The notes under the pieces are model-generated. The model was not told the origin of the DNA and searched no databases. It saw nothing but the letters and a program-made list of their open reading frames with translations. Both the position numbers and the translations under genes were made by a program. Source: a virus. Taken from it: a stretch of 64,000 nucleotides of DNA. Location of the stretch: positions 8,849 to 72,848 of the IMG/VR virus record IMGVR_UViG_3300033150_001583. One strand, 5' to 3'. Positions within the stretch are counted from its first letter, which is position 1. Each line of letters opens with the position of its first letter. Below, piece after piece: positions 2,701 to 56,820 of the stretch.

Positions 2701-3177
2701 GTGCAGAAGTACATAAATAATGCTGAAGGTATTCTCTGGGTAGGGCGTACTAGATTGAAGCCTAAACAGGTGGTTGAACTTACTAAGGAATATTTTAAGA
2801 GTGATGCTGATTTAAAGGAAGCAAAAAGGGTCGCTGAAGATCCAGATAATAAATTGCTAATTCCCTATTCTCCGCCTGAGAAGGAGAAAGCTGAAAATGA
2901 GGTTTCTCCTTCTCAGGACAATCCTTCAAATGATGAACAAAATAACTTAAAAGTTCAACAACAGGACGATAAAGAGAAAAATGAAGTTGTTGAAGAAGAA
3001 GAAAAAGATTATTTCGATTTACATTGGAAGAAGTTTGAGAAAGAAATTAAAGAAATAAATGATATTGAAGCTTTAAAACAGTTGTTGACTGAAGCCAAAG
3101 AGATTGAAAAAGAAGGGATAAAGAAGGTGGATACTTATATAAGGATTTTGAATGAACAGATTAAAAAGTTATCTTAA
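2701..3177 (+). CDS. Hypothetical head-associated protein, acidic low-complexity middle
   Basis: GTG start with AAGGAG RBS; follows the MCP. Confidence 0.5.
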   Translation: MQKYINNAEGILWVGRTRLKPKQVVELTKEYFKSDADLKEAKRVAEDPDNKLLIPYSPPEKEKAENEVSPSQDNPSNDEQNNLKVQQQDDKEKNEVVEEEEKDYFDLHWKKFEKEIKEINDIEALKQLLTEAKEIEKEGIKKVDTYIRILNEQIKKLS

Positions 3178-3190
3178 AGAGTGATCTCTT

Positions 3191-3604
3191 ATGACTATTA
3201 CGGGTGTTTTAAACAAGTTAAGAAGAAGATTGGGTGATACAGATTCTAATAATTATGTTTTTACTGATTCTGAGTTGAAAGGGTACATTGGTGACAGTAT
3301 ACCCAGAGTTAAGAATTATTTATCTTCGTCTCTTGAGTATGATGAAAAAAACCAAACCCTCTCTAGAGAAGTTTCAAGTGAAGAAGCTGATCTTTTAGCA
3401 TTACAGGCTCATATTTTAGTAACGATAAGGATTAAATCTAGTGCTGATAGAGACAATTTTTCTATCAGGAAAGGTCGCTTACGTATTGATAATACTAAAC
3501 AGTCTTCTGATCATGCGGAGACTTTGAGTAGATTAGAGAAAGAAAAGAGAGAGTTAATTTGGGAGATGTGTTGCTCTAATTTGCAAGGTGTGAGGGTTGA
3601 ATAA
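3191..3604 (+). CDS. Head-tail connector/adaptor protein
   Basis: 137 aa; N-terminal 'LRRRLGDTD...FTDSEL..YI' is typical of adaptor proteins; neck-module position. Confidence 0.65.
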   Translation: MTITGVLNKLRRRLGDTDSNNYVFTDSELKGYIGDSIPRVKNYLSSSLEYDEKNQTLSREVSSEEADLLALQAHILVTIRIKSSADRDNFSIRKGRLRIDNTKQSSDHAETLSRLEKEKRELIWEMCCSNLQGVRVE

Positions 3605-3606
3605 TC

Positions 3607-4059
3607 ATGAGAGTTCCCGACCCGCAGAAAATTATAGAAAAAATCAGTGAGGTTAACCACATTTACACTGATGAAATTACTCTTCACTTTGTTACTGAAA
3701 TTGATTGTGATCAGTGTGGCTACGATCCTGTTCGTGGTGAGGGGTTGGATATTAATTGTCCTAAATGTGGTGGTAGTGGAAAGATTAAGGTAGATGACCC
3801 TATTACGATTGATGTTACTGTGGAAACTGAGGATGAAGCTGAACTTGAGTTTTTGGAAGCTGGGACTTTTTTAAAAGACCAATTATTTATAACCATTGAT
3901 AGACAAGAGTATGAAAATCACAATATTGATATAGAGAAGGTTGATTATTTTACCTTTCAAGGTGAAGACTATGTTTTGGTAGCTTATAGAAAGCAGTATT
4001 TACAAAATATCTTTTATGAAATTCGGTGTAAGCTGGAGAAGAAGACCGATGCCACGTAA
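3607..4059 (+). CDS. Head closure/stopper protein with CxxC...CxxC zinc motif
   Basis: CDQC and CPKC motifs; position after the adaptor. Confidence 0.55.
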   Translation: MRVPDPQKIIEKISEVNHIYTDEITLHFVTEIDCDQCGYDPVRGEGLDINCPKCGGSGKIKVDDPITIDVTVETEDEAELEFLEAGTFLKDQLFITIDRQEYENHNIDIEKVDYFTFQGEDYVLVAYRKQYLQNIFYEIRCKLEKKTDAT

Positions 4060-4750
4060 AAAACGGAGTTTTAAAGGAGAACTAAAAGTAAAATTGGGAT
4101 CTAGTTATAAGAAAACATACGATCATGTGCATGATTTTGCTTCTGCGTTTAGTAGTATTTCGTTATCTACAGTTATTTGGACTGCTGCTGCTCATTTGAG
4201 ACATAAAGTTTACGAAAATATACGTCGTGAACCTTTGGATTATGTGCGAACTGGTGGGTTTTTAAAGGCTGTTAGTGATGAGCGCGTTAAAAAGTTTAAA
4301 GTTAGTACTACTATTAAAGGAAAAAGAAGAATATTTACGTCTGGTGCTGGTTCTTTAGAAGTTTTAAATAAAGTTGTTCGTCCTAAAGAAACTGTTACTT
4401 TTGAAACTCCTAGTGGACAGCATAGAACTTTGTCTTTTAAGAAGGGCACGTTTCCAATCTGGATTATGGTTGAGTATGGTATTTTAAATAGGGGTGAGCA
4501 AGTTCCTAAAGAGTTCACTAAATATACTAAAAAGAAGACATCATTACCTTATCGTATGGTATTTGCGGGCTGGAATGTTAGCAATAATAAGCCAGTTATA
4601 TTCATGTCTAAGAATGTGCCTGTAAGTTATCCACATCACCCTGGCGTTAAAGGATCTGGAGCGTACAGGAGAGCCTTAAGAGAATTATATAAGGAAAGGT
4701 TTATAGAGAAATTAATTGATGAAACTATAGCAAGAAAATTAAAGGATTGA
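4049..4750 (+). CDS. Neck/tail completion protein (basic)
   Basis: Likely starts at the ATG of MPRKKRSF rather than 4016; synteny within the neck module. Confidence 0.45.
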   Translation: MPRKKRSFKGELKVKLGSSYKKTYDHVHDFASAFSSISLSTVIWTAAAHLRHKVYENIRREPLDYVRTGGFLKAVSDERVKKFKVSTTIKGKRRIFTSGAGSLEVLNKVVRPKETVTFETPSGQHRTLSFKKGTFPIWIMVEYGILNRGEQVPKEFTKYTKKKTSLPYRMVFAGWNVSNNKPVIFMSKNVPVSYPHHPGVKGSGAYRRALRELYKERFIEKLIDETIARKLKD

Positions 4751-8472: not shown

Positions 8473-11400
8473 AGCCTATGAAACTCAATATATTGTTACT
8501 CTTTCAGCGGTTGATGAGAGTCTTTTAGAAACTTTAACAGGGCAAAATGGAGTATTAGGTGCTCTTAATCAAATTCAACAGAAAATAGAGCAAATTAATA
8601 AGACTCCTATTACTATACGGACTAAGATAGAAGATAAAGAGGCCAAGCCTTCTTCTGGTGGATCTTCTTCTGGAGGAACAGGAGGAATATCTTCTGGTGG
8701 CGGAAGGCCACCTAAACACAATAAGAGAAGTCTTGATACTGCGGAAGTAAATCAAGTAGCCGCCGCTTCAAAGAAGATTGCTAAAGGCTATAATGAACTA
8801 GCTGGGTCTATTGAAAAACTTAAGCAAGTAGGCAAGGTTTCTTTAGGAAAAGATTTAGGAATTACTGCTAAAACTATTGGAAGTCTTAGGGATTTAGGTG
8901 AAGCGTCTGGTAATGCTGGTACTGGTTTAGAAAAGGTTGCTAGTGCTCTTGAAGGCATTGGTCAGGCTAAAGGGTTTTCTGCGGTGAAAAATTTAGGGGC
9001 TAATTTAACAAATATTAGAAGAGTTGAAGGCTTGGGAGATGCTGCTATTCGTGCTGGCACTGGTTTAAATGAAATTGCCAATGCTCTCCAGCGGATGGGG
9101 GATGTAAAAAAAATTGGTCCAACAATTACTTATACCAATAAGCAAATTGGCAAGTTTATTTCTACTTTAAGACATTTAGATCAAAAAGGTACTAAGGCTT
9201 TAGTAGGACTTGAGACTAGACTTGCTTCTATACAACAAAGAATAAATGATACTATATCTAAAATAAATGCACTTTCGACTGTTGGTGCTAGTAAGCTTGA
9301 AGCATTTCAGCAAAGACAGACAAAAAGAAGTATTTCTCAAGAACAAAAGCAAGATCTTGAAAAAATTAAAGAAGCTACTTCTGCTCAGGCACAAGAATTG
9401 GAAAAACAGTATTTGAGTGCAATGCGTAATATCCAACGCCAGCGTTTTGGTAGGGCCATGACTATTGCTGATATGCTGGGTGTTAAGATTGATCCCAGGG
9501 ATTATCAGCACATGTTTGATTTTAATGTCCAGCTTCAAGCTGCTCGTGAACAAGTGCGGAAAATGTTGGAGCAGCATAAAAGGACTAAACAAAGCCTTTA
9601 TAGTGTTATTCCTCTCTATGACGAGATGGGCAATAAAGTATCTCAATTTGCTGTGATGGTTGATAGGGCTGGTAGAGTTATTTATAACTTTGACCGTGAT
9701 TTGATTCAATTGTTCCAGAATATGTTCTACAGGATGGGAGTTTGGGCTATAGCAACTGCTGGTGTTTATATGTTCATCAATGCTATCAAAGAAGCTATTC
9801 AGTATATGAAAGATCTTAGTAGACAACTTAAATTACTGGAGATTGCGGCAGGAGGACTTAATATTGGCGAAATTATAGAAGGTATAGGACGGCTTGTGTC
9901 TGAATATGGAGGGACGGTAGCTGAAGCTGTTGATATTACATACCAGTTTGTAAAAGTTCTTCGCGATGAAGAAAAAGCCTTGGAAGCTACTAAGTTGGCT
10001 TTAATGGCATATAATATTTCTGGTTTGGAGTACGATGAATCTGCCGAGTTATTGATTGGTGTAATGAACCAATATAATTTGTCAATTCGAGAAGCTAGAG
10101 ATTTGATGGATGCTTGGGCGGTTGCTTCTCGTAAGGGTACTGTTGACTTTAAAGAATTAGCGGAGGCATTTAATAAATCTGCTGTTGCCGCCAATGAACT
10201 AGGTATTAGCTATAAAGAACTGACGGCAATGATTGAGGCAGTAGGAACTGCTAGTGGTGAAAGTGGTAAAGAAATAGGTAACTTTGTGAAGTTTATATTG
10301 GAACATGCTAGAGATTTAGAGACTTTATATGCTGTTCAAGAAGTAGCTGGCGTTCCTGTATTTACTGAAACTGGTGAGTATAGAAGTACTTTTGATGTAC
10401 TTGTTGATTTAGGAAAAGCCTGGAAAGATCTTAGTGATGATCAAAGAAATTATGTTAAGACTGCTTGGGCAAGTTATCGTCAGGGTGCTAGGTTTAAAGC
10501 TTTAATGGAGGCTACCAGTCGAGACATAGAAGAATTTGGTTCTACTTTAGGTATATTGAAAGAGATACATGAAGGTTATGGTGAGGCAGCTTATCAGAAT
10601 GCTTTAGTTCTCAATACTTTGCAGGGTGCCTTCCAAAAGTTGCAAGGTGTTTATACTACTTTTGTTCAAAGTTTTACTGATAGTGGTTTGGCACAACTTA
10701 TTAAATTTGCAGTGAAGGGACTTTATACTTTACTTGATTTGTTCAATAAAACTGATGATGCAGGCACGCACTTCCTTAGTTTGATAAGTGCTATTATTAC
10801 TAGAATTGCTATAATGGCAAGACAGGGGATGGGTACTCTTGCCCGTTCCATAGGTGAATTTAAGGATGCAATGAATAGTTTTGCACGGGCACAAGAGGTT
10901 GCTGGCACTCAAGGAGCTGCTGCTCAAGAAAAGATACGCAGTGAGATCGGTGTTACAAATACTGCTTTAAATCATCAGATAGCTTTAGTAGATCGGTTGA
11001 TTGCTGGCTACAGAAGATTGTTTGGTACTGAAGTTCCTCAGACTGTGAAGGAGGCTACGAAAGATACCGAGAAAATAATACCGAGTAGGGTTTTTTCACC
11101 TAAGACTCCAGTGACACCTAGACAGCCAGTTGATTTAAGTTATATTCCTTCTCCTCGTAAAACGACTCCATCAGGGATTATAGTCCCTGGAGGAATTTCG
11201 CGCGATTTTGTTACTAGTTATGACCGAAAGTTTAATATGGGTTTAATAGGTAGAGTACAAGATAGAATTAGTAAATTTTCTAATGCTATTAGGAGTAGTT
11301 TAGATGGTATTATTGTCTCTATGAGGAATCTTGGGAATAAGATACCTGCTACTTTAAGGAAGATAGATGACAGCTTTGCCAAGGCATTAAGGAGTAGCAA

Positions 11401-49094: not shown

Positions 49095-49122
49095 TTGACA
49101 CTAGATATACAGTTGCTATAAT
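49095..49122 (+). promoter_or_regulatory. sigmaA promoter upstream of cas12f
   Basis: TTGACA (49095)-16 nt-TATAAT (49117) with extended -10 TG; same architecture as the 44269 promoter. Confidence 0.8.
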
Positions 49123-49230: not shown

Positions 49231-50457
49231 GTGGGTGCGGTGATTAAGAGACCTTTAGATGTCGAATGGGAAGAATTTGGTAAAGTATTACATGATTTAA
49301 GGTTTAAGACCGTACTTGCCTGTAATTATACCATACAACTCTATTGGGAGTGGGATAAAGAAAAGTTTAAATATAAGGAAGAATACGGCAATTTTCCAAG
49401 TGAAAAAGATGTTTTCGGAATGACTTTTAGAAATTATGTTTATCATAAGTTGAGAGAAAAATTTTCAGAAGTAAGTTCAGCTAATATATCACAGATACAG
49501 CAAGCTGCAATGAAGTTGTGGAAGAAAGAATTGCCAGAAATTCGAAAATTAAAGGCTTCTGTTCCAAGTGTTAAGTTGGGTTATCCTATACTTGTATATA
49601 ATAAAAACTATGAAATTAGAAGAAATAAAGAAGGTAGATTTGTAGTTAAATTGACTTTATATAGCAAAGAGAAAGAAAAAACGAGATTTGAAATTCTTTT
49701 AGATAAGCTGGATAAGTCTAAAAAAGCCATATTAGATAGAATTATATCGGGTGAATATAAACAAGGCGTATTACAAATAAGACAAATAAAAAAAAAGAAG
49801 AAAAAGAAATGGATGTGTATCTTTTCTTATTCCTTTGTTCCAGATAAGAGACATGAATTTATTAAGGATAGAGTAATGGGAATTGATTTAGGTATTAATT
49901 ATACTGCCTATTGTGCTCTTAATGATGATCCTAAGCCGAGATATCCTTATAAAGGGGGTGAGATTAAAGAGTTTAATAGAAGATTGAAAAAGAGAAAAAT
50001 TAGCATTCAGAAATCAGGCGGGAAAACAGGACATGGCCGAAAGCGCAAATTACTTCCTGTGGAAATTTTTTCAGGGCGGATAAAAAATTATAGAAACACA
50101 ATAAATCATAAGATAGCTAAACGAATAGTTGATAAAGCTTTAAAATTCAAGGTAGCTAAAATTCATTTAGAAGACTTATCTGAGATAGGTGAAGACACAG
50201 GTAATACTTCATTCTTTTTAGAAAACTGGCCTTATTATGATTTACAGCAAAAAATAAAGTATAAAGCCGAAAGAGAAGGTATTGAGGTGTGTTTCATAGA
50301 CCCTAAAAATACTTCTATTAAATGTTCGAAATGTGGATATATAGACAAAGAAAATAGAGATAAAGAGAAATTCAAGTGTAAGAAATGTGGTTTTGAGGCT
50401 CATGCTGATTATAATGCTGCTAGAAATATAGCTATGAGTGTTGATTATGTGAGTTAA
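49231..50457 (+). CDS. cas12f: Cas12f (type V-F) / TnpB-superfamily RNA-guided nuclease
   Basis: RuvC-I MGIDLG, RuvC-II IHLEDL, Zn finger CSKC/CKKC, RuvC-III HADYNAARNI. N-terminus 'IKRPLDVEWEEFGKVLHDL' resembles AsCas12f1 as recalled. Adjacent tracr-like RNA and array. The true start may be upstream, e.g. ATT at 49207. Confidence 0.85.
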   Translation: MGAVIKRPLDVEWEEFGKVLHDLRFKTVLACNYTIQLYWEWDKEKFKYKEEYGNFPSEKDVFGMTFRNYVYHKLREKFSEVSSANISQIQQAAMKLWKKELPEIRKLKASVPSVKLGYPILVYNKNYEIRRNKEGRFVVKLTLYSKEKEKTRFEILLDKLDKSKKAILDRIISGEYKQGVLQIRQIKKKKKKKWMCIFSYSFVPDKRHEFIKDRVMGIDLGINYTAYCALNDDPKPRYPYKGGEIKEFNRRLKKRKISIQKSGGKTGHGRKRKLLPVEIFSGRIKNYRNTINHKIAKRIVDKALKFKVAKIHLEDLSEIGEDTGNTSFFLENWPYYDLQQKIKYKAEREGIEVCFIDPKNTSIKCSKCGYIDKENRDKEKFKCKKCGFEAHADYNAARNIAMSVDYVS

Positions 50458-50460
50458 AAT

Positions 50461-50615
50461 TAAATACCAGGGCGATTTCACGTCCTGAAGGTGAGAAGTG
50501 TCATATCCTTGCAGTGACATGATAACGCTCACCAAGCCTAAAAAATCCCTTGCTATACGAGGCGCAGGGGCACCCTAATACTAATACAGATTGACGACAT
50601 TTTTTGTTGTTTTGA
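50461..50615 (+). ncRNA. tracrRNA-like structured RNA (copy 1)
   Basis: Stems GGGCG/CGTCC, GTGAG/CTCAC, CCCTTGC/GCAGGGG; CACCC complementary to GGGTG of the repeat; terminal hairpin plus U-tract; a second diverged copy at 56313 shows covariation. Confidence 0.8.
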
Positions 50616-50654
50616 GGATTTATAATCCTTGAGAATACTAGATTTCGAAATGGG

Positions 50655-50863
50655 GTTTCTAATAAGGCTATATCGGGTGGAAACGCGGCCAGCTTGAACC
50701 AACCATCAGTCAATGCTAGAGTTTCTAATAAGGCTATATCGGGTGGAAACGTAGAAGTGGCAGATGAGTGGGACATAGTACAGATTGGTTTCTAATAAGG
50801 TTATGTTGGGTGGAAACAGCAATGTTGTTGATTAAATAGAGTTCGTTTATGTGGGGTGGAAGC
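50655..50863 (+). CRISPR. Mini CRISPR array: three 30-bp repeats plus one truncated repeat
   Basis: GTTTCTAATAAGGCTATATCGGGTGGAAAC at 50655 and 50721 (identical) and 50788 (3 mismatches); spacers of 36 and 37 bp; degenerate 3' half-repeat at 50847-50863. Confidence 0.92.
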
Positions 50864-50948
50864 AACAGACAATAGAACAAAATATAGATGTAGTTAAAGT
50901 ATTTCTGAAGAAATTATACAGGATGGGAACATGTGGTGAGGCAGAAAA

Positions 50949-52037
50949 ATGTCAAAAAGAAGACATTTTTTAGAAATAAAGCAGATAATAGAACAAAATA
51001 TAGACGTAGTTAAAGTTTTGGAGTTTTATGGCGCAAGAAAAATTAAAAAATTTCCATCTGGCATACGTTGTTGCTGTCCATTGCACGATGGTGATAACTA
51101 CACGTCTTTTTATTTTAATACAGACACCATGACGTGGTATTGTTTTTCACGAAATTGCGGGGAAGGTATATCTAAAGACATTTTCGGCTTTGTCTATCTC
51201 GCGCAGAAAAAAATCGCAGGGAAAAGAGCAACATTAAAAGACGTAATATCAATTTTGCTTTCATTCTGCAATATCAATATAACCCTTGATGAAATAGATT
51301 TCTCCTATAACAAAGAACTTTACGACGCAGTAGACAATACTAACTTTATTAAAACAGTTAAATCGGATAAAGATACACACATTGATTTAGAAACGCTTAA
51401 TTATGATACTATTGCTCCTTTTTATAAAGAAGAACCATCGTACCTGTATACAAGAGGATACAGTAGAAAAATTATAAGTGTGTTTTCTATAGGTTTTTCT
51501 AGATACGGCATTAATGAAAAACACAAAATTAAAGATGATTTTCCAGGCAGAGTTATAGTTCCCGTGGAGCATTTAGATAATTCTTTAGTTGGTCTAAGTG
51601 GAAGACTTGCTACTGACAACAAAGAATTAATTAATAAATACGGCAAATACAGACATTTAGTTGACTTTCAAAAAGGGGCCGTACTCTATAATTTAAATCG
51701 AGCTTTGCCTTATATCAAGAGAGAGAAAAGTGTTATTTTTGTAGAAGGTTTTTTTGATGTGATGAGACTCTATACTTTTAGAGTAAGAAATGTAGTATCA
51801 CTGATGGGAACCTCCCTAACTAAATATCAAAGAAGCTTAATATTACCCTATGTTGAGAATGTATATCTTATGTTAGATTCTGATGAAGGAGGTGAGAAAG
51901 GAACTAAAAGAGTTGCGAAACAGTTAAAGGGATTGTGCAATATCTATCGTATTCCTCTTCCCTGCGGGAAAGACCCTGATGACTTATCTTTAAAAGAATT
52001 TTGGTTGAGTTTTGGAAGGGCAAAAAAAATAGTTTAA
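50949..52037 (+). CDS. dnaG: DNA primase (CHC2 zinc finger plus Toprim)
   Basis: 'CCCPLHDG...WYCFS..C', 'FPGRVIVP', 'FVEGFFDV', 'LMLDSDEGG', 'GKDPD'. Confidence 0.9.
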   Translation: MSKRRHFLEIKQIIEQNIDVVKVLEFYGARKIKKFPSGIRCCCPLHDGDNYTSFYFNTDTMTWYCFSRNCGEGISKDIFGFVYLAQKKIAGKRATLKDVISILLSFCNINITLDEIDFSYNKELYDAVDNTNFIKTVKSDKDTHIDLETLNYDTIAPFYKEEPSYLYTRGYSRKIISVFSIGFSRYGINEKHKIKDDFPGRVIVPVEHLDNSLVGLSGRLATDNKELINKYGKYRHLVDFQKGAVLYNLNRALPYIKREKSVIFVEGFFDVMRLYTFRVRNVVSLMGTSLTKYQRSLILPYVENVYLMLDSDEGGEKGTKRVAKQLKGLCNIYRIPLPCGKDPDDLSLKEFWLSFGRAKKIV

Positions 52038-52432: not shown

Positions 52433-53728
52433 GTGCCTATAGCTGAAGAAACTTTGTTAGTGACTAGAAAGGGCATACTCCCTTTTTCTGCTTTTATTAA
52501 AGATAAACAACATAGGAGAGATATTTTATATCCTGTTGGGCGAGATATGTTTATCAGAGCTTTAAATAATTATGAGACTACATTTGAGGGATACCTGTTT
52601 TTTGGCAAAGGAGAAGCTATCAGAATAACAACATTAACTGGTTATTCTGTTATTGCTTCTCCTGATCAAAGGGTAAGAATTGTTAATTCTACTGGAAATT
52701 ATAGCTGGAGGCGCATGGAAAGTTTACAGGGTGGCGATTGGGTTGTCTTACAGATGAATTCTTATCCTGATTATGTTGATGATTTTTCACCGACTTTGTT
52801 AAAAGAGCCTTTAGATGATGAAGACATGGTTTTGCCTACAAGATTAACACAAGAGTTGGCAGAGTGGCTTGGATATTTTTTATTCAGGGGGATTCTTTTT
52901 TACCCCGAAAAAGATAAAAAGGCTCAAATTGGGTTTATATATAGCAACGAAAAAATAAAAAATTATCTGATAGGTTTAACGGCAAAACTTTTTGGGATAA
53001 GTGATTATGAGAAAATAGAAGGATTGGGTCTTCATAGTGCAGGTGCATTTGGTTATCAGTCCAATACACTGTTTAAGTGGCTGATTAGCGTTGGGTTATT
53101 AGGTTCTGAAGGTATTCCTCAAATTCCCTCTCTCATTTTTCGCGGGGGAAGAAAGATGATATATCCATTTTTGAGGGGAGCTTTTTCAGCCTGTTGTTTA
53201 GTAGAAGAATTGAAAAATAAGAGAGTTATTAAGTTGTATTCTCCTTATATTGACTTGATTCGAGAATTACAGATACTCTTACTTTCAATTGGTATTCCAA
53301 CAATAATAAATACTTCTATTCAGGATTCTGATTACTTATTTACTCTATATGTAATAACTAAAAAGGGACTTAAGAACTTTAGAGACAATATTGGTTTTTT
53401 TGATTCGCCTTTAAGCAATGCTTTAGAGGAGATAAATTTACTCAATTATGCACCAGAGAAAAAAATCGGGGGGCTAAGAGAAATATATGAGGAAGACCCT
53501 AAAAACTTAAAGAGTAGAAGCCAAACCGATATACTTAGGATTAAAAGGTTATTCACAGATGTAAGAGTGATGACACTTTCTAAAACATTAATTTGTGAAG
53601 TATTTAATGAGAATCATCTGTATGACCAAGTAATTTCAATCGAAAAAACCAAAGCAAAGCTTTATGAACCGAGATTAATTGGCAAAAGAAGCTTTGTGGG
53701 TAATGGATTTGTATTTTTTGTTGAGTAA
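52433..53728 (+). CDS. Free-standing intein-like protein (Hint-N, LAGLIDADG, Hint-C) with degenerate catalytic motifs
   Basis: Block A-like 'PIAEETLLVTRKG', block B-like 'VIASPDQRV', LAGLIDADG-like 'LAEWLGYFLFRG' and 'FLRGAFSACC', block F/G-like 'LYEPRLIGKRSFVGNGFVFF'; no extein on either side. Confidence 0.75.
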   Translation: MPIAEETLLVTRKGILPFSAFIKDKQHRRDILYPVGRDMFIRALNNYETTFEGYLFFGKGEAIRITTLTGYSVIASPDQRVRIVNSTGNYSWRRMESLQGGDWVVLQMNSYPDYVDDFSPTLLKEPLDDEDMVLPTRLTQELAEWLGYFLFRGILFYPEKDKKAQIGFIYSNEKIKNYLIGLTAKLFGISDYEKIEGLGLHSAGAFGYQSNTLFKWLISVGLLGSEGIPQIPSLIFRGGRKMIYPFLRGAFSACCLVEELKNKRVIKLYSPYIDLIRELQILLLSIGIPTIINTSIQDSDYLFTLYVITKKGLKNFRDNIGFFDSPLSNALEEINLLNYAPEKKIGGLREIYEEDPKNLKSRSQTDILRIKRLFTDVRVMTLSKTLICEVFNENHLYDQVISIEKTKAKLYEPRLIGKRSFVGNGFVFFVE

Positions 53729-54405: not shown

Positions 54406-56289
54406 ATGCAACTAAGAGCAACTTTTGAGCCAGAATTTGATTACTTGTACGAGCAATTTAAAAACACTAAATATGGAAAAGAACTTTTAGATTTAGAAGG
54501 GGTAAGCTTAGATAAAACAGATGTAGGTTTGATGTCTTATAACTATTTTACAAAAGATGTCCAAGATATGACCGTTGACCAAAATGCCAATGCAAATGAA
54601 GATAAATGCCCCAACAATTACAGTGCTGAAATTACCAAAGGAATTTTAAAACTTGAAGGTCATTATCTTTTGTGGAGGTATGCTAAGAAGCGTTTTGGAA
54701 TACATAGGGCGAATCAGATGATGCGTTCTCTTTGGAAGGGTGATTTGTATTTTCATGATTCGTCAGGAAGTAACATCCAAAAGCCGTACTGCGTTGCGTT
54801 CAGTACAGCCCATATAATGAATGATGGTCGTAGGTATGGGCAACTGCACTCTTTGCCACCTAAGAGAGCTGATTCTTTTATTGCTCAGGTAATTGAAAGT
54901 ACGATGGACTTATCACAAGAATTCGCGGGGGCCTTAGCCCCAGCCGATATGATAGTTAATTATTGTTATTATGCCAAAAAAGAAAATTTATCGGAGTATA
55001 AGATTAAGAATGATTTTCAGAAGTTTATTCATGTTGTTAATAATAAGTTTAGACTGGGGTCAGAAAGCCCTTTTACAAATATTTCATTATTTTGTCGAGA
55101 AAATCTTAAAAAAGTTTTTGGTGACTACGTATATCCAGATGGTAGTAAGCCTGATTTTGAATATATAATGAAAGTCCAAAAAATTTTTGGGGAAATAATG
55201 GCAAAAGGAGATCCAGCAACAGGGCTTGCATATAGATTTCCTGTTACTACAGTAAATTTGATGGTTGATGAAAATAATGAAATTCTTGATAAAGATTTTT
55301 TGGAATGGACTTGCAGTAACAATATAGACAAGGCTTGTTTTAATATTTATGTAAATGATGGTGAGAAGCTCTGTTCTTGTTGTAGATTAACAAACAACAT
55401 GGAAGAAATGCGTAAAAAACGAGCTGATACTTTTGGCAATGGTGGAGTTTCGATTGGGAGCCATCGTGTTGTAACAATTAACCTGCCCCGCATTGCACGA
55501 CAAGCTCAAACAAGAGAAGAATTTTATAGATTGCTCGATAATCGACTGGAGATTGCAAGAGACTTTTTGTTAGTGCACAGAGAAGAAATTTTAAATCGCA
55601 GAATTAAACAAGGTTTTCTCAAGTTTTTTGAGCCACTTAAATGGTTTAATCAAAGTATGTTTTTCAGCACTATTGGAATTACAGGTATATATGAAATGAA
55701 TAAATTTGCGGGGTTCGATATAAACACCAAAGAAGGCCAAGAGTTTACTGAAGAAGTTTTAAGGTATATCAACAACAAAGCTGATGAGTTTTATGAACAA
55801 ACAGGTTGGGCCTTTAATGTTGAAGAAATTCCTGCTGAATCGGCTGCTGTAACACTTGCTAAAAAAGACAAAATAATTTTTGGCGATAATCCATTTGAGC
55901 TATATTCGAACCAGTACTTCCCTCTTATTGCTGATGTTGATATTATTGATCGAATTGAAGTTACAGGTAAATTCATGGAATTAACTTCAGGTGGCGGAAT
56001 TTTACATTTAAATATTGAAGAACAAATAACCGATCCTGAAAAAATGAAGTTCTTGATTAAACAGTGTGTAAAACATGGTGTAACTCATTTTGCAATCAAT
56101 TACGGCTATATTATCTGCAAGGGATGTGGTGAAGTTACTGTCGGTGGTAACGCTAAAAGCTGCCCCAAATGTGGTAGTAAAGATATTGATTACATGACGA
56201 GGGTAATTGGGTACTATTCTATCGTGTCTAAATGGAATCCTGTAAGAAGAAATTATGAATTTCCGAATAGAAAATTTAAGAAGATATAA
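54406..56289 (+). CDS. nrdD: Anaerobic (class III) ribonucleoside-triphosphate reductase
   Basis: 'YFHD', 'PYC', 'CSCCRL', 'E.PAES', C-terminal zinc CxxC...CPKC and 'TRVIGYY' glycyl-radical motif. Confidence 0.92.
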   Translation: MQLRATFEPEFDYLYEQFKNTKYGKELLDLEGVSLDKTDVGLMSYNYFTKDVQDMTVDQNANANEDKCPNNYSAEITKGILKLEGHYLLWRYAKKRFGIHRANQMMRSLWKGDLYFHDSSGSNIQKPYCVAFSTAHIMNDGRRYGQLHSLPPKRADSFIAQVIESTMDLSQEFAGALAPADMIVNYCYYAKKENLSEYKIKNDFQKFIHVVNNKFRLGSESPFTNISLFCRENLKKVFGDYVYPDGSKPDFEYIMKVQKIFGEIMAKGDPATGLAYRFPVTTVNLMVDENNEILDKDFLEWTCSNNIDKACFNIYVNDGEKLCSCCRLTNNMEEMRKKRADTFGNGGVSIGSHRVVTINLPRIARQAQTREEFYRLLDNRLEIARDFLLVHREEILNRRIKQGFLKFFEPLKWFNQSMFFSTIGITGIYEMNKFAGFDINTKEGQEFTEEVLRYINNKADEFYEQTGWAFNVEEIPAESAAVTLAKKDKIIFGDNPFELYSNQYFPLIADVDIIDRIEVTGKFMELTSGGGILHLNIEEQITDPEKMKFLIKQCVKHGVTHFAINYGYIICKGCGEVTVGGNAKSCPKCGSKDIDYMTRVIGYYSIVSKWNPVRRNYEFPNRKFKKI

Positions 56290-56312
56290 GGAGGTGATGA
56301 GCAATAGATAAT

Positions 56313-56470
56313 TAGATACTAGGGCGATTCCGCGTCCTAAAAGTGAGAAGTGCTATATCCTTACAATGGTATAGTGGCACTCACTAAGCCTTAAAAATCC
56401 TTCGCTATGCGAGGCGCGAAGGCATTCCACATTATTAAAAATCGACGACATTTTTTGTTGTTTTGGAAGT
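56313..56470 (+). ncRNA. Second, orphan tracrRNA-like copy
   Basis: Colinear with 50461-50615 along its length, with conserved stems and compensatory changes; no cas gene adjacent. Confidence 0.8.
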
Positions 56471-56504
56471 TTGTGAACCTTGAAAATAGCTAACTTCATG
56501 GTGG

Positions 56505-56535
56505 GTTCTGGAGTAAACTATGTGGAATGGGAAAT
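56505..56535 (+). CRISPR. Solitary diverged CRISPR repeat followed by a putative guide
   Basis: GTTCTGGAGTAAACTATGTGGAATGGGAAAT sits at the position equivalent to repeat 1 of the main array; its ATGTGGAATG pairs with CATTCCACAT in the copy-2 tracr. Confidence 0.65.
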
Positions 56536-56580
56536 GGTTATTAATTGGAATACATTTGAATTCTATTAGGAGGGGTTTGA

Positions 56581-56820
56581 TTGGATGTAAACGAGGTTTT
56601 TATTAATTGTTGGGTGTGGAAGGCAGTTTTGAGTTTTATAGGGCTTTATGTTTTTATCTTTGGTTTTGCTGCTTTGGGCGCAGTATCTGATAAGCCTATT
56701 TTATCTGCTACTTCTATATCAATTGCGTGGCTATGCAGTATAGGAGCTTGGGTGGTGGGGATTATAACTTTATTTTTATTAATCGCTAAAATTTTACTAT
56801 GGTTGGGGGTTTTGTATTAG
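56581..56820 (+). CDS. Small membrane protein
   Basis: AGGAGGGG RBS; two hydrophobic helices. Confidence 0.6.
   Translation: MDVNEVFINCWVWKAVLSFIGLYVFIFGFAALGAVSDKPILSATSISIAWLCSIGAWVVGIITLFLLIAKILLWLGVLY

Follow-up and report, generated by a model that had tools for sequence, protein, structure and literature searches.

Three diverged tracrRNA units for a single phage Cas12f, two of them candidate orphan guide-RNA genes

The usual description of a type V-F CRISPR system comprises a single nuclease gene, a single trans-activating CRISPR RNA (tracrRNA) and a single CRISPR array. In type V-F1 (the AsCas12f1 clade, formerly V-U3), a Cas12f dimer acts with a long tracrRNA and a CRISPR RNA. Here we describe a phage, IMG/VR virus record IMGVR_UViG_3300033150_001583, in which a close homologue of that nuclease is accompanied by three tracrRNAs. 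Our analysis concerned 64,000 nucleotides of the record (positions 8,849 to 72,848, hereafter the window) and, within them, the intergenic region downstream of nrdD at window 56310-56580, where a tracrRNA, a leader, one repeat and a putative guide stand together. The phage resembles described type V-F1 loci in tracr stems 1 and 2, in the single-stranded motifs and in the order of gene, tracrRNA and array, which is as in related loci; stem 3 and the anti-repeat have the support of the three phage copies. It differs in having three tracrRNAs for one nuclease, in that two of the copies are remote from the gene and each carries a single repeat and a fixed guide, and in that one has re-matched its repeat and anti-repeat. 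The phage system is a type V-F1 (AsCas12f-clade) CRISPR-Cas system, and its unusual part is the multiplicity of the tracrRNA and its dispersal with single repeats.

Several other described systems share part of this arrangement. The omegaRNA of TnpB and of non-autonomous IS200/IS605 elements likewise consists of one scaffold followed by a guide taken from adjacent DNA, with the nuclease supplied in trans, and a logic by which alleles without the element are cut is set out in bioRxiv 10.1101/2023.11.20.567912. However, the phage has no TnpA, neither transposon ends nor a target-adjacent motif could be defined in it, its scaffold is split into tracr and repeat by a leader, and its copies are old (78-88% identity). 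Virus-borne mini-CRISPR arrays and solitary repeats, which have no adaptation genes and are thought to act in virus-virus conflict (reviewed in 10.1101/2023.03.03.530964), are also short repeat-guide loci on a viral genome, and the primase-matching spacer 4 of the phage (below) fits that theme; those loci use host Cas proteins and have no tracrRNA, whereas the phage units bring their own tracrRNA and the phage its own nuclease. Stand-alone guides are also found in the orphan guide RNA of dCas12f-sigmaE (PMC12259090), encoded away from the effector gene and used in trans, and in the VIPR solo vrRNAs (bioRxiv 10.64898/2026.10.15.759431), which act in trans in phage-satellite competition. These two differ from the phage in that their effectors are a nuclease-dead Cas12f with a sigma factor and a Vipr complex with non-contiguous recognition, and in that their guide targets are identified; the phage nuclease is intact.

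The arrangement is not unique to the phage, because Alicyclobacillus macrosporangiidus DSM 17980 has similar orphan units. That genome carries one AsCas12f-like gene with several scaffold units around it (NZ_FPBV01000023.1, 23000-29500). In all there are four full units and a truncated fifth, each joined to a repeat that ends in GTGTTGTGGG and then passing into unique sequence. Three repeats are present in the unit upstream of the gene, and one further complete unit is 23 kb off (stretch 860-1030). Two of the orphan guides had no second match in that genome beyond chance. In this bacterial chromosome the scaffold is fused to the repeat like a natural single guide, whereas in the phage units a leader (about 40 nt) and a pair of hairpins separate the two. 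Our search of the literature found no description of multiple or orphan tracrRNAs for a nuclease-active Cas12f.

The orphan unit in the window (unit 2) was recognized by its likeness to the non-coding region after cas12f. At about 74-78% identity, window 56310-56535 copies in colinear order the tracrRNA, the leader and the first of the repeats at 50458-50684; pairwise alignment and repeat search gave ungapped matches of 78% (50458-50572 against 56310-56424) and 79% (50582-50637 against 56433-56488). A first, sequence-only reading of the window had proposed such a diverged copy with no nuclease gene beside it, and both points were confirmed: nrdD (54406-56289, Pfam NRDD) ends on its left, and the gene for a 79-amino-acid (aa) membrane protein (56581-56820) begins on its right. 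The features of the unit are as follows.

56297-56311, plus strand: mini open reading frame (ORF) MSNR, directly after the nrdD stop codon, with an RBS-like (ribosome-binding-site-like) GGAGGTG ahead of it
56310-56465, plus strand: tracrRNA copy 2, with stem 1 (beginning at 56322), stems 2 and 3, and the anti-repeat CATTCCACAT at 56423-56432
56466-56504, plus strand: leader, diverged from those of copies 1 and 3
56505-56535, plus strand: single repeat, whose segment ATGTGGAATG (56520-56529) is complementary over 10 bp to the unit's own anti-repeat
56536-56580, plus strand: putative guide, the 3' flank of the repeat, whose first 20 nt (56536-56555) are GGTTATTAATTGGAATACAT

The mini-ORF (ATG at 56297 to TAA at 56311) and the 20-nt guide are present as the sequence-only reading gave them, and the mini-ORF could be either a remnant or a product of chance. 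The guide stretch runs into the RBS (56568-56575) of the 79-aa gene, which starts at 56581. Unit 2 has one repeat and no array: the best repeat-like window downstream of it scored 1.4, against 42-44 for three intact repeats and 12.5 for a degenerate repeat of the array after cas12f.

A second copy had thus been correctly seen, but the genome as a whole holds three tracr units, not two, plus one solitary repeat. A DNA search placed the third unit at genome 130,700-130,456 (minus strand), outside the window and between a 68-aa ORF and a DUF6557 gene. It is also an orphan, consisting of tracr, leader and one repeat followed by unique sequence, with a scaffold that shares 87% identity with copy 1. 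Searching the genome with a profile built on all three copies recovered exactly those three (E 1e-85 to 1e-95) plus the array repeats. A position-weight scan that used the repeats revealed the fourth locus, a 30-nt repeat standing alone at genome 114,938-114,909 (minus strand), again outside the window. It is of the copy-2 type, in that its 3' 19 nt are those of repeat 2 except for one substitution and one missing base, and about 1 kb of flanking sequence on each side held no tracr module. A YopX gene follows it directly, and the would-be guide spans the RBS and TTG start of that gene. A 15-codon mini-ORF (MESLDWKCPKCGKEF and a stop codon) with a strong RBS ends within the solitary repeat. Two other repeat-like matches in the genome scan were rejected as false positives driven by RBS sequences. 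Orphan units 2 and 3 are 6 kb and about 70 kb from cas12f, and all four loci are intergenic and co-oriented with their flanking genes. Rfam held no matching family.

The fold of copy 2 has been kept by covariation. The compensatory pairs named beforehand (TCAT/ATGA in copy 1 versus CTAT/ATAG in copy 2, and CCCTTGC/GCAGGGG versus CCTTCGC/GCGAAGG) are all present, as are the kept elements GGGCG/CGTCC, GTGAG/CTCAC and the invariant 22-nt hairpin with its U-tract (56444-56465 in copy 2). Copies 1 and 2 differ by 33 substitutions in 147 positions; 16 of these fall in stems, and not one pair is broken in copy 2. When the same substitutions were placed at random, a mean of 7.0 pairs were broken and zero was reached in about 5 of 100,000 trials (P about 5e-5). 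Copy 3, with 18 substitutions, pointed in the same direction (P 0.01). RNAalifold applied to the three tracr regions gave 36 pairs (stem 1, stem 2 and its inner stem, stem 3 and the terminal hairpin), 7 of them with compensatory double changes; the one broken cell is in copy 1, and copy 2 keeps all pairs. The folding energy of each copy was also better than that of its shuffles (z -3.2 to -3.9). The 22-nt block is invariant across all three phage copies, and the single-stranded family motifs GAGAAGT, AACGCTC and AAG are kept with it in every copy.

The permutation test relied on a structure that came in part from these very sequences, and the structure was therefore checked on independent tracrRNAs of distant Cas12f loci. 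In a ten-sequence alignment of the tracr 5' module from such loci, 10 of 21 pairs were compensatory. The covariance model built from that alignment gave the phage copies scores of 87-91 bits (87 bits, with E 6e-19, for copy 2) and found the module in 25 of 29 genomes having an AsCas12f-like gene. The scaffold is therefore the tracrRNA of the Cas12f family, and copy 2 is a well-preserved member of it.

The anti-repeat has changed together with its own repeat, as had been suggested. Copies 1 and 3 have an anti-repeat core CACCC opposite GGGTG of the repeat, whereas in copy 2 CATTCCACAT stands opposite ATGTGGAATG to give an unbroken run of ten pairs, two of which are T:A where the other copies have C:G. 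Both the tracr fold and the repeat:anti-repeat pairing have thus been under long-term selection. Predicted duplex energies were as follows.

tracr 2 with repeat 2: -14.6 kcal/mol
tracr 1 with repeat 2: -7.5 kcal/mol
tracr 2 with repeat 1: -8.5 kcal/mol
tracr 1 with repeat 1: -9.6 kcal/mol

Repeat 2 is therefore predicted to favour tracr 2 by about 7 kcal/mol, whereas repeat 1 barely discriminates (-9.6 versus -8.5). The earlier proposal of orthogonal tracr/repeat pairs is partly supported: the preference of repeat 2 for tracr 2 stood, but on this crude energy measure orthogonality is one-sided, repeat 1 being undiscriminating and the solitary repeat pairing with both types. The solitary repeat pairs in register with tracr 2 (-14.6) and also holds TTAGGGTG, a stretch complementary to the tracr 1 and tracr 3 anti-repeat (-17.5); as a copy-2-type repeat it is predicted to give tracr 2 a second client. 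When each whole unit was folded as one RNA, the anti-repeat paired with the repeat in cis in units 2 and 3.

The nuclease that could serve these units is encoded once. The virus record is 139,584 bp long, has direct terminal repeats and is rated complete, the window being part of it, and in this complete genome we found exactly one gene of the Cas12f/TnpB family, no match to PF01797 (the Y1 transposase TnpA) anywhere, and no Cas1. The features of the cas12f locus are the following.

49095-49122, plus strand: sigma-70-type promoter upstream of cas12f, 12/12 to consensus and with TG
49231-50457, plus strand: cas12f, 408 aa, Pfam Cas12f1-like_TNB and OrfB_IS605
50458-50614, plus strand: tracrRNA copy 1, with stem 1 (from 50470), stem 2 and inner stem, stem 3, anti-repeat CACCC and the weak invariant hairpin
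50615-50654, plus strand: leader of unit 1, with a 6-bp hairpin AGGATT/AATCCT
50655-50930, plus strand: CRISPR array of unit 1, five repeats (position-weight scan and direct reading)

The protein aligned over its full length to the AsCas12f1 structures 8J3R, 8J1J, 8J12, 7WJU and 8DZJ (E 5e-91 to 2e-88). In that alignment the D-E-D triad of the RuvC domain, the motifs GIDLG, HLEDL and ADYNAARN, and the zinc finger with its CxxC pairs are all intact. Between the primase and nrd genes lies a 431-aa ORF with a LAGLIDADG_3 domain (window 52433-53728), a gene of the homing-endonuclease type that shares the replication module with the Cas12f cassette.

The array after cas12f had been recognized before, with three or four repeats; there are five. 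R1, R2 and R3 begin at 50655, 50721 and 50788, a shortened R4 lies at about 50841-50863, and R5 (50901-50930) is a degenerate repeat that agrees with R1 at 19 of 30 positions and abuts the RBS of the primase gene. The spacers are 36-37 nt long, and the weak hairpin with its U-tract that closes copy 1 is at 50593-50614. The protospacer-adjacent motif (PAM) of AsCas12f1 is reported as 5'-NTTR. Spacer 4 (50864-50900) lies between the degenerate R4 and R5. It matches a gene of the phage itself, primase, at 50980-51016, 116 nt downstream: 18 of the first 20 positions agree, the mismatches are PAM-proximal, and the four nucleotides at the PAM position are ATAA rather than NTTR. Such a near-match to an essential gene, mismatched both at the PAM and next to it, suggests a system aimed at the primase genes of close relatives while the phage's own gene escapes.

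Relatives of the phage and of its Cas12f were sought in several collections. The phage had no DNA match among GenBank phages, and a single-sequence search of IMG/VR found no relative of its Cas12f. The nearest Cas12f relatives are 47-48% identical (48% for the closest anywhere), and two more are 44-45% identical. Three of the four loci were recovered on contigs of 6-19 kb, with the tracrRNA directly after each gene; the array has 13 repeats in one and three in another. The second-closest Cas12f (48%; ENA metagenome scaffold, 3001-4644) lies in the tail module of a phage or prophage, with LysM and baseplate genes on its two sides, and the roughly 390 nt after it hold a tracrRNA and three repeats, with the appearance of an insertion. 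Several GTDB genomes have the same tracr 5' module either upstream or downstream of a cas12f-like gene. In metagenome-assembled genomes (MAGs) of Phascolarctobacterium and Fusicatenibacter it is 600-1000 nt upstream, and the order of gene and tracr therefore varies within the clade. The invariant 22-mer was absent from IMG/VR, and its single match among JGI metagenome contigs was to an unrelated AT-rich contig.

The extent of the homology among the three phage copies is sharply defined, as the following counts show.

Scaffold: 90/122 identical between copies 1 and 2, 107/123 between copies 1 and 3
Two hairpins plus leader: 44/61 identical between copies 1 and 2, 61/61 between copies 1 and 3

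In the 30 nt preceding the unit and the 30 nt following the repeat, identity falls to background (30-47%). The perfect agreement of hairpins and leader between copies 1 and 3, set against 87% in their scaffolds, points to either extra constraint or a recent conversion. Homology begins directly after the stop codon of cas12f, and the orphan copies therefore have no recognisable coding remnant. Left boundaries differ among the copies, with TTA ahead of stem 1 in copy 3 only and no consistent PAM-like sequence; neither similarity of left and right flanks nor target-site duplication was significant, and no transposon ends could be defined. Relatives of nrdD are 53-59% identical to it. In the two that we examined the next gene follows within about 60 nt, and the downstream genes there are unrelated to the 79-aa gene, whose product is a singleton.

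Since each orphan locus has only one repeat, its guide is whatever sequence follows. A position-weight scan found no convincing second repeat downstream of the orphan repeats. The next gene's RBS falls within guides 2, 3 and 4 (guide 4 being the one at the solitary repeat), as would be expected of native flank, and their G+C content (25-39%) is near or below that of the surrounding phage genome (30-38%), whereas the leader-proximal spacers 1 and 2 have 53% and 46%. A 20-mer of the unit 3 guide had four matches in unrelated taxa that stop at 20-21 nt and were read as chance. One of these, in the Eubacterium sp. MAG JBJEPI010000039.1 (stretch 2672-2691), falls at the 3' end of a 118-aa ORF and is exact over 20 nt with CTTG, of NTTR type, ahead of it, but it also stops at 20 nt and is probably due to chance.

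Taking these results together, we consider it on balance probable, from the sequence and its comparisons, that the orphan units work as guide-RNA genes complete in themselves, with the single Cas12f serving them in trans. The sequence-only reading had proposed a dispersed guide cassette of this kind, and that proposal held in so far as a nuclease-less unit has been selected for its fold and a single, catalytically intact Cas12f could serve it. Window 56310-56580 would then be one such gene, made up of a divergent tracrRNA followed by a leader, a single repeat and a guide that is fixed, and cas12f at 49231-50457 would serve all three tracr units and the repeat-only fourth locus. Transcription would run through from neighbouring genes and the product would be trimmed; the anti-repeat would pair with its own repeat, in cis or in trans, a Cas12f dimer would bind the conserved scaffold, and the approximately 20 nt after the repeat would act as the guide. 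The complex would be expected to cut any DNA in which the guide sequence stands behind a PAM (5'-NTTR in AsCas12f1). The most obvious target would be the same intergenic region of a related, co-infecting phage that has no repeat there, and the phage's own copy would be spared because the repeat occupies the PAM position. By analogy, this would be the logic of the TnpB omegaRNA applied by a CRISPR-type nuclease in a virus. That the targets are homologous, repeat-less intergenic regions of related phages is a more tentative proposition, which we would place between unlikely and possible. A fuller version, in which a nuclease-active phage Cas12f system has gone back to the selfish ways of its TnpB ancestors and dispersed single-repeat guides, each with a tracrRNA that co-evolves with it, cut related phages without the insert during mixed infections and so exclude them, or copy the unit in by repair, with at least two partly orthogonal tracr:repeat classes on one nuclease (RNA-guided homing or marker exclusion), we regard as doubtful.

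A number of results weigh against this reading of the orphan units. Neither a sigma-70-type promoter nor a canonical terminator was found for them, the site at 49095-49122 being the only strong promoter-like site detected near any unit. Because they have no promoter of their own that we could find, the orphan units are probably made by read-through transcription and later trimmed, and as a terminator the invariant 22-nt hairpin and U-tract are at best weak. The proposal that the guide be matched against phage and other genomes brought no target: within the phage itself, spacer 4 against primase was the only second match of any guide or spacer to reach 15 of 20 positions; IMG/VR held neither guide 2 or 3 nor spacer 1 or 2, GTDB genomes neither guide 2 nor spacer 1 or 2, and JGI metagenome contigs no guide 2 (exact searches); and neither the array spacers nor guide 2 matched GenBank phages. 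In the collections searched there was no related phage that might provide an empty site. The PAM assumed is that of AsCas12f1 and may not be that of this orthologue. From selection on the fold it follows that the unit has had a function since it was duplicated, but the identity of the RNA-binding protein does not follow, and the partial dependence of the permutation test on the sequences that it judges belongs on the same side.

Other explanations for unit 2 differ mainly in where its guide came from and in whom the unit serves. It could be a true mini-array, with a spacer acquired from a foreign target and a downstream repeat that has since decayed, working by ordinary Cas12f interference. 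The extent to which repeats can decay is seen in R4 and R5 of the main array, there are known virus-borne mini-arrays directed at other viruses (cited in 10.1101/2023.03.03.530964), and weak repeat-like windows, ranking in the top 0.04-0.07% of the genome, occur some 27-36 nt beyond the orphan repeats. Those windows, though, are not significant given 40 offsets and are driven by their content of RBS-like GGAGG and of AAAC, and the stretch in unit 2 includes the RBS of the next gene, that of the solitary repeat both an RBS and a start codon. The guides are also phage-like or lower in G+C, whereas spacers 1 and 2 are well above the phage value; the complete genome has no Cas1 for acquisition; and no protospacer appeared in the IMG/VR, GTDB or JGI searches. 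We judge this explanation unlikely. A relic of a mobile, omegaRNA-type element (IS200/IS605-like, a homing cassette, or a cas12f cassette minus its nuclease) that persists selfishly would account for a guide that equals the flank, as in TnpB omegaRNAs, for the dispersal of copies over intergenic sites in the orientation of the genes, and for homology that spans from just after the cas12f stop codon to the end of the repeat. Some relatives sit insertion-like within prophage modules, and Sarcina ventriculi offers a possible route to orphan tracr units: its contig C5:61006-61981 carries a second cas12f and tracr cassette in which the nuclease gene has 14 stop codons and the tracr module scores like an intact copy. 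Standing against a mobile relic are the lack of a Y1 transposase in the complete genome, the age of the copies (78-88% identical, thus not recent), and the absence of significant flank similarity, of target duplication and of a consistent PAM-like sequence at the left boundaries. Compensatory evolution indicates that the RNA has long been under selection, as would fit either use by the phage or selfish spread. The mobile relic overlaps with the guide-gene reading on the matter of origin, and we consider it quite unlikely as the explanation of unit 2.

Solitary repeat units and RNA anti-CRISPRs are known in phages, a repeat family common in clostridia may be similar to the repeats of this Cas12f clade, and the orphan units might be decoys that mimic a tracrRNA or repeat of a host type V-F or I-B system and so absorb or misdirect host Cas proteins; the sequence-only reading had itself offered an anti-CRISPR role based on a likeness to type I-B repeats. 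That alternative gained no support, in that the 3' 20-mer of repeat 2, with up to 3 mismatches, had no array-scale match in 401 sampled Clostridia genomes and the repeat is continuous with the phage's own V-F repeats. A decoy would moreover have no need of an anti-repeat and a repeat that co-evolve within one unit, and the phage has its own intact Cas12f, whose cognate scaffold the orphan RNAs copy; we hold this view to be very improbable. The least probable of all, in our judgement, is that unit 2 is a decaying duplicate with no present function. The absence of a detected promoter or target and of an adjacent nuclease gene is what would be expected of one, but decay is at odds with 16 stem substitutions that break no pair (P about 5e-5), with the covariation of anti-repeat and repeat, with a 22-nt block invariant in three copies and with the sharp boundaries of conservation.

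Returning to the reading of the orphan units as guide-RNA genes, its interest lies in what one nuclease has gathered around it. In this phage a single Cas12f has three diverged, still foldable tracrRNAs, one of which has an anti-repeat matched anew to the repeat of its unit. Provided that the orphan units are loaded, the phage can spread fixed guides around its genome with neither an array nor adaptation genes, and it would possess natural, partly orthogonal tracr:repeat pairs for a 408-aa nuclease that is closely related to an enzyme used in genome editing, which would be useful for multiplexing. An evolutionary reading of the units as an intermediate between omegaRNA and array, as first proposed from the sequence, is consistent with the data, and under the same condition the step from omegaRNA to a split tracrRNA and array would be open to study in living examples, A. 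macrosporangiidus being the second. Free-standing homing endonucleases are known from the T4 literature to sit between the genes of large phages; if the repeat-less alleles of related phages are indeed the targets, the orphan units would be an RNA-guided counterpart of them.

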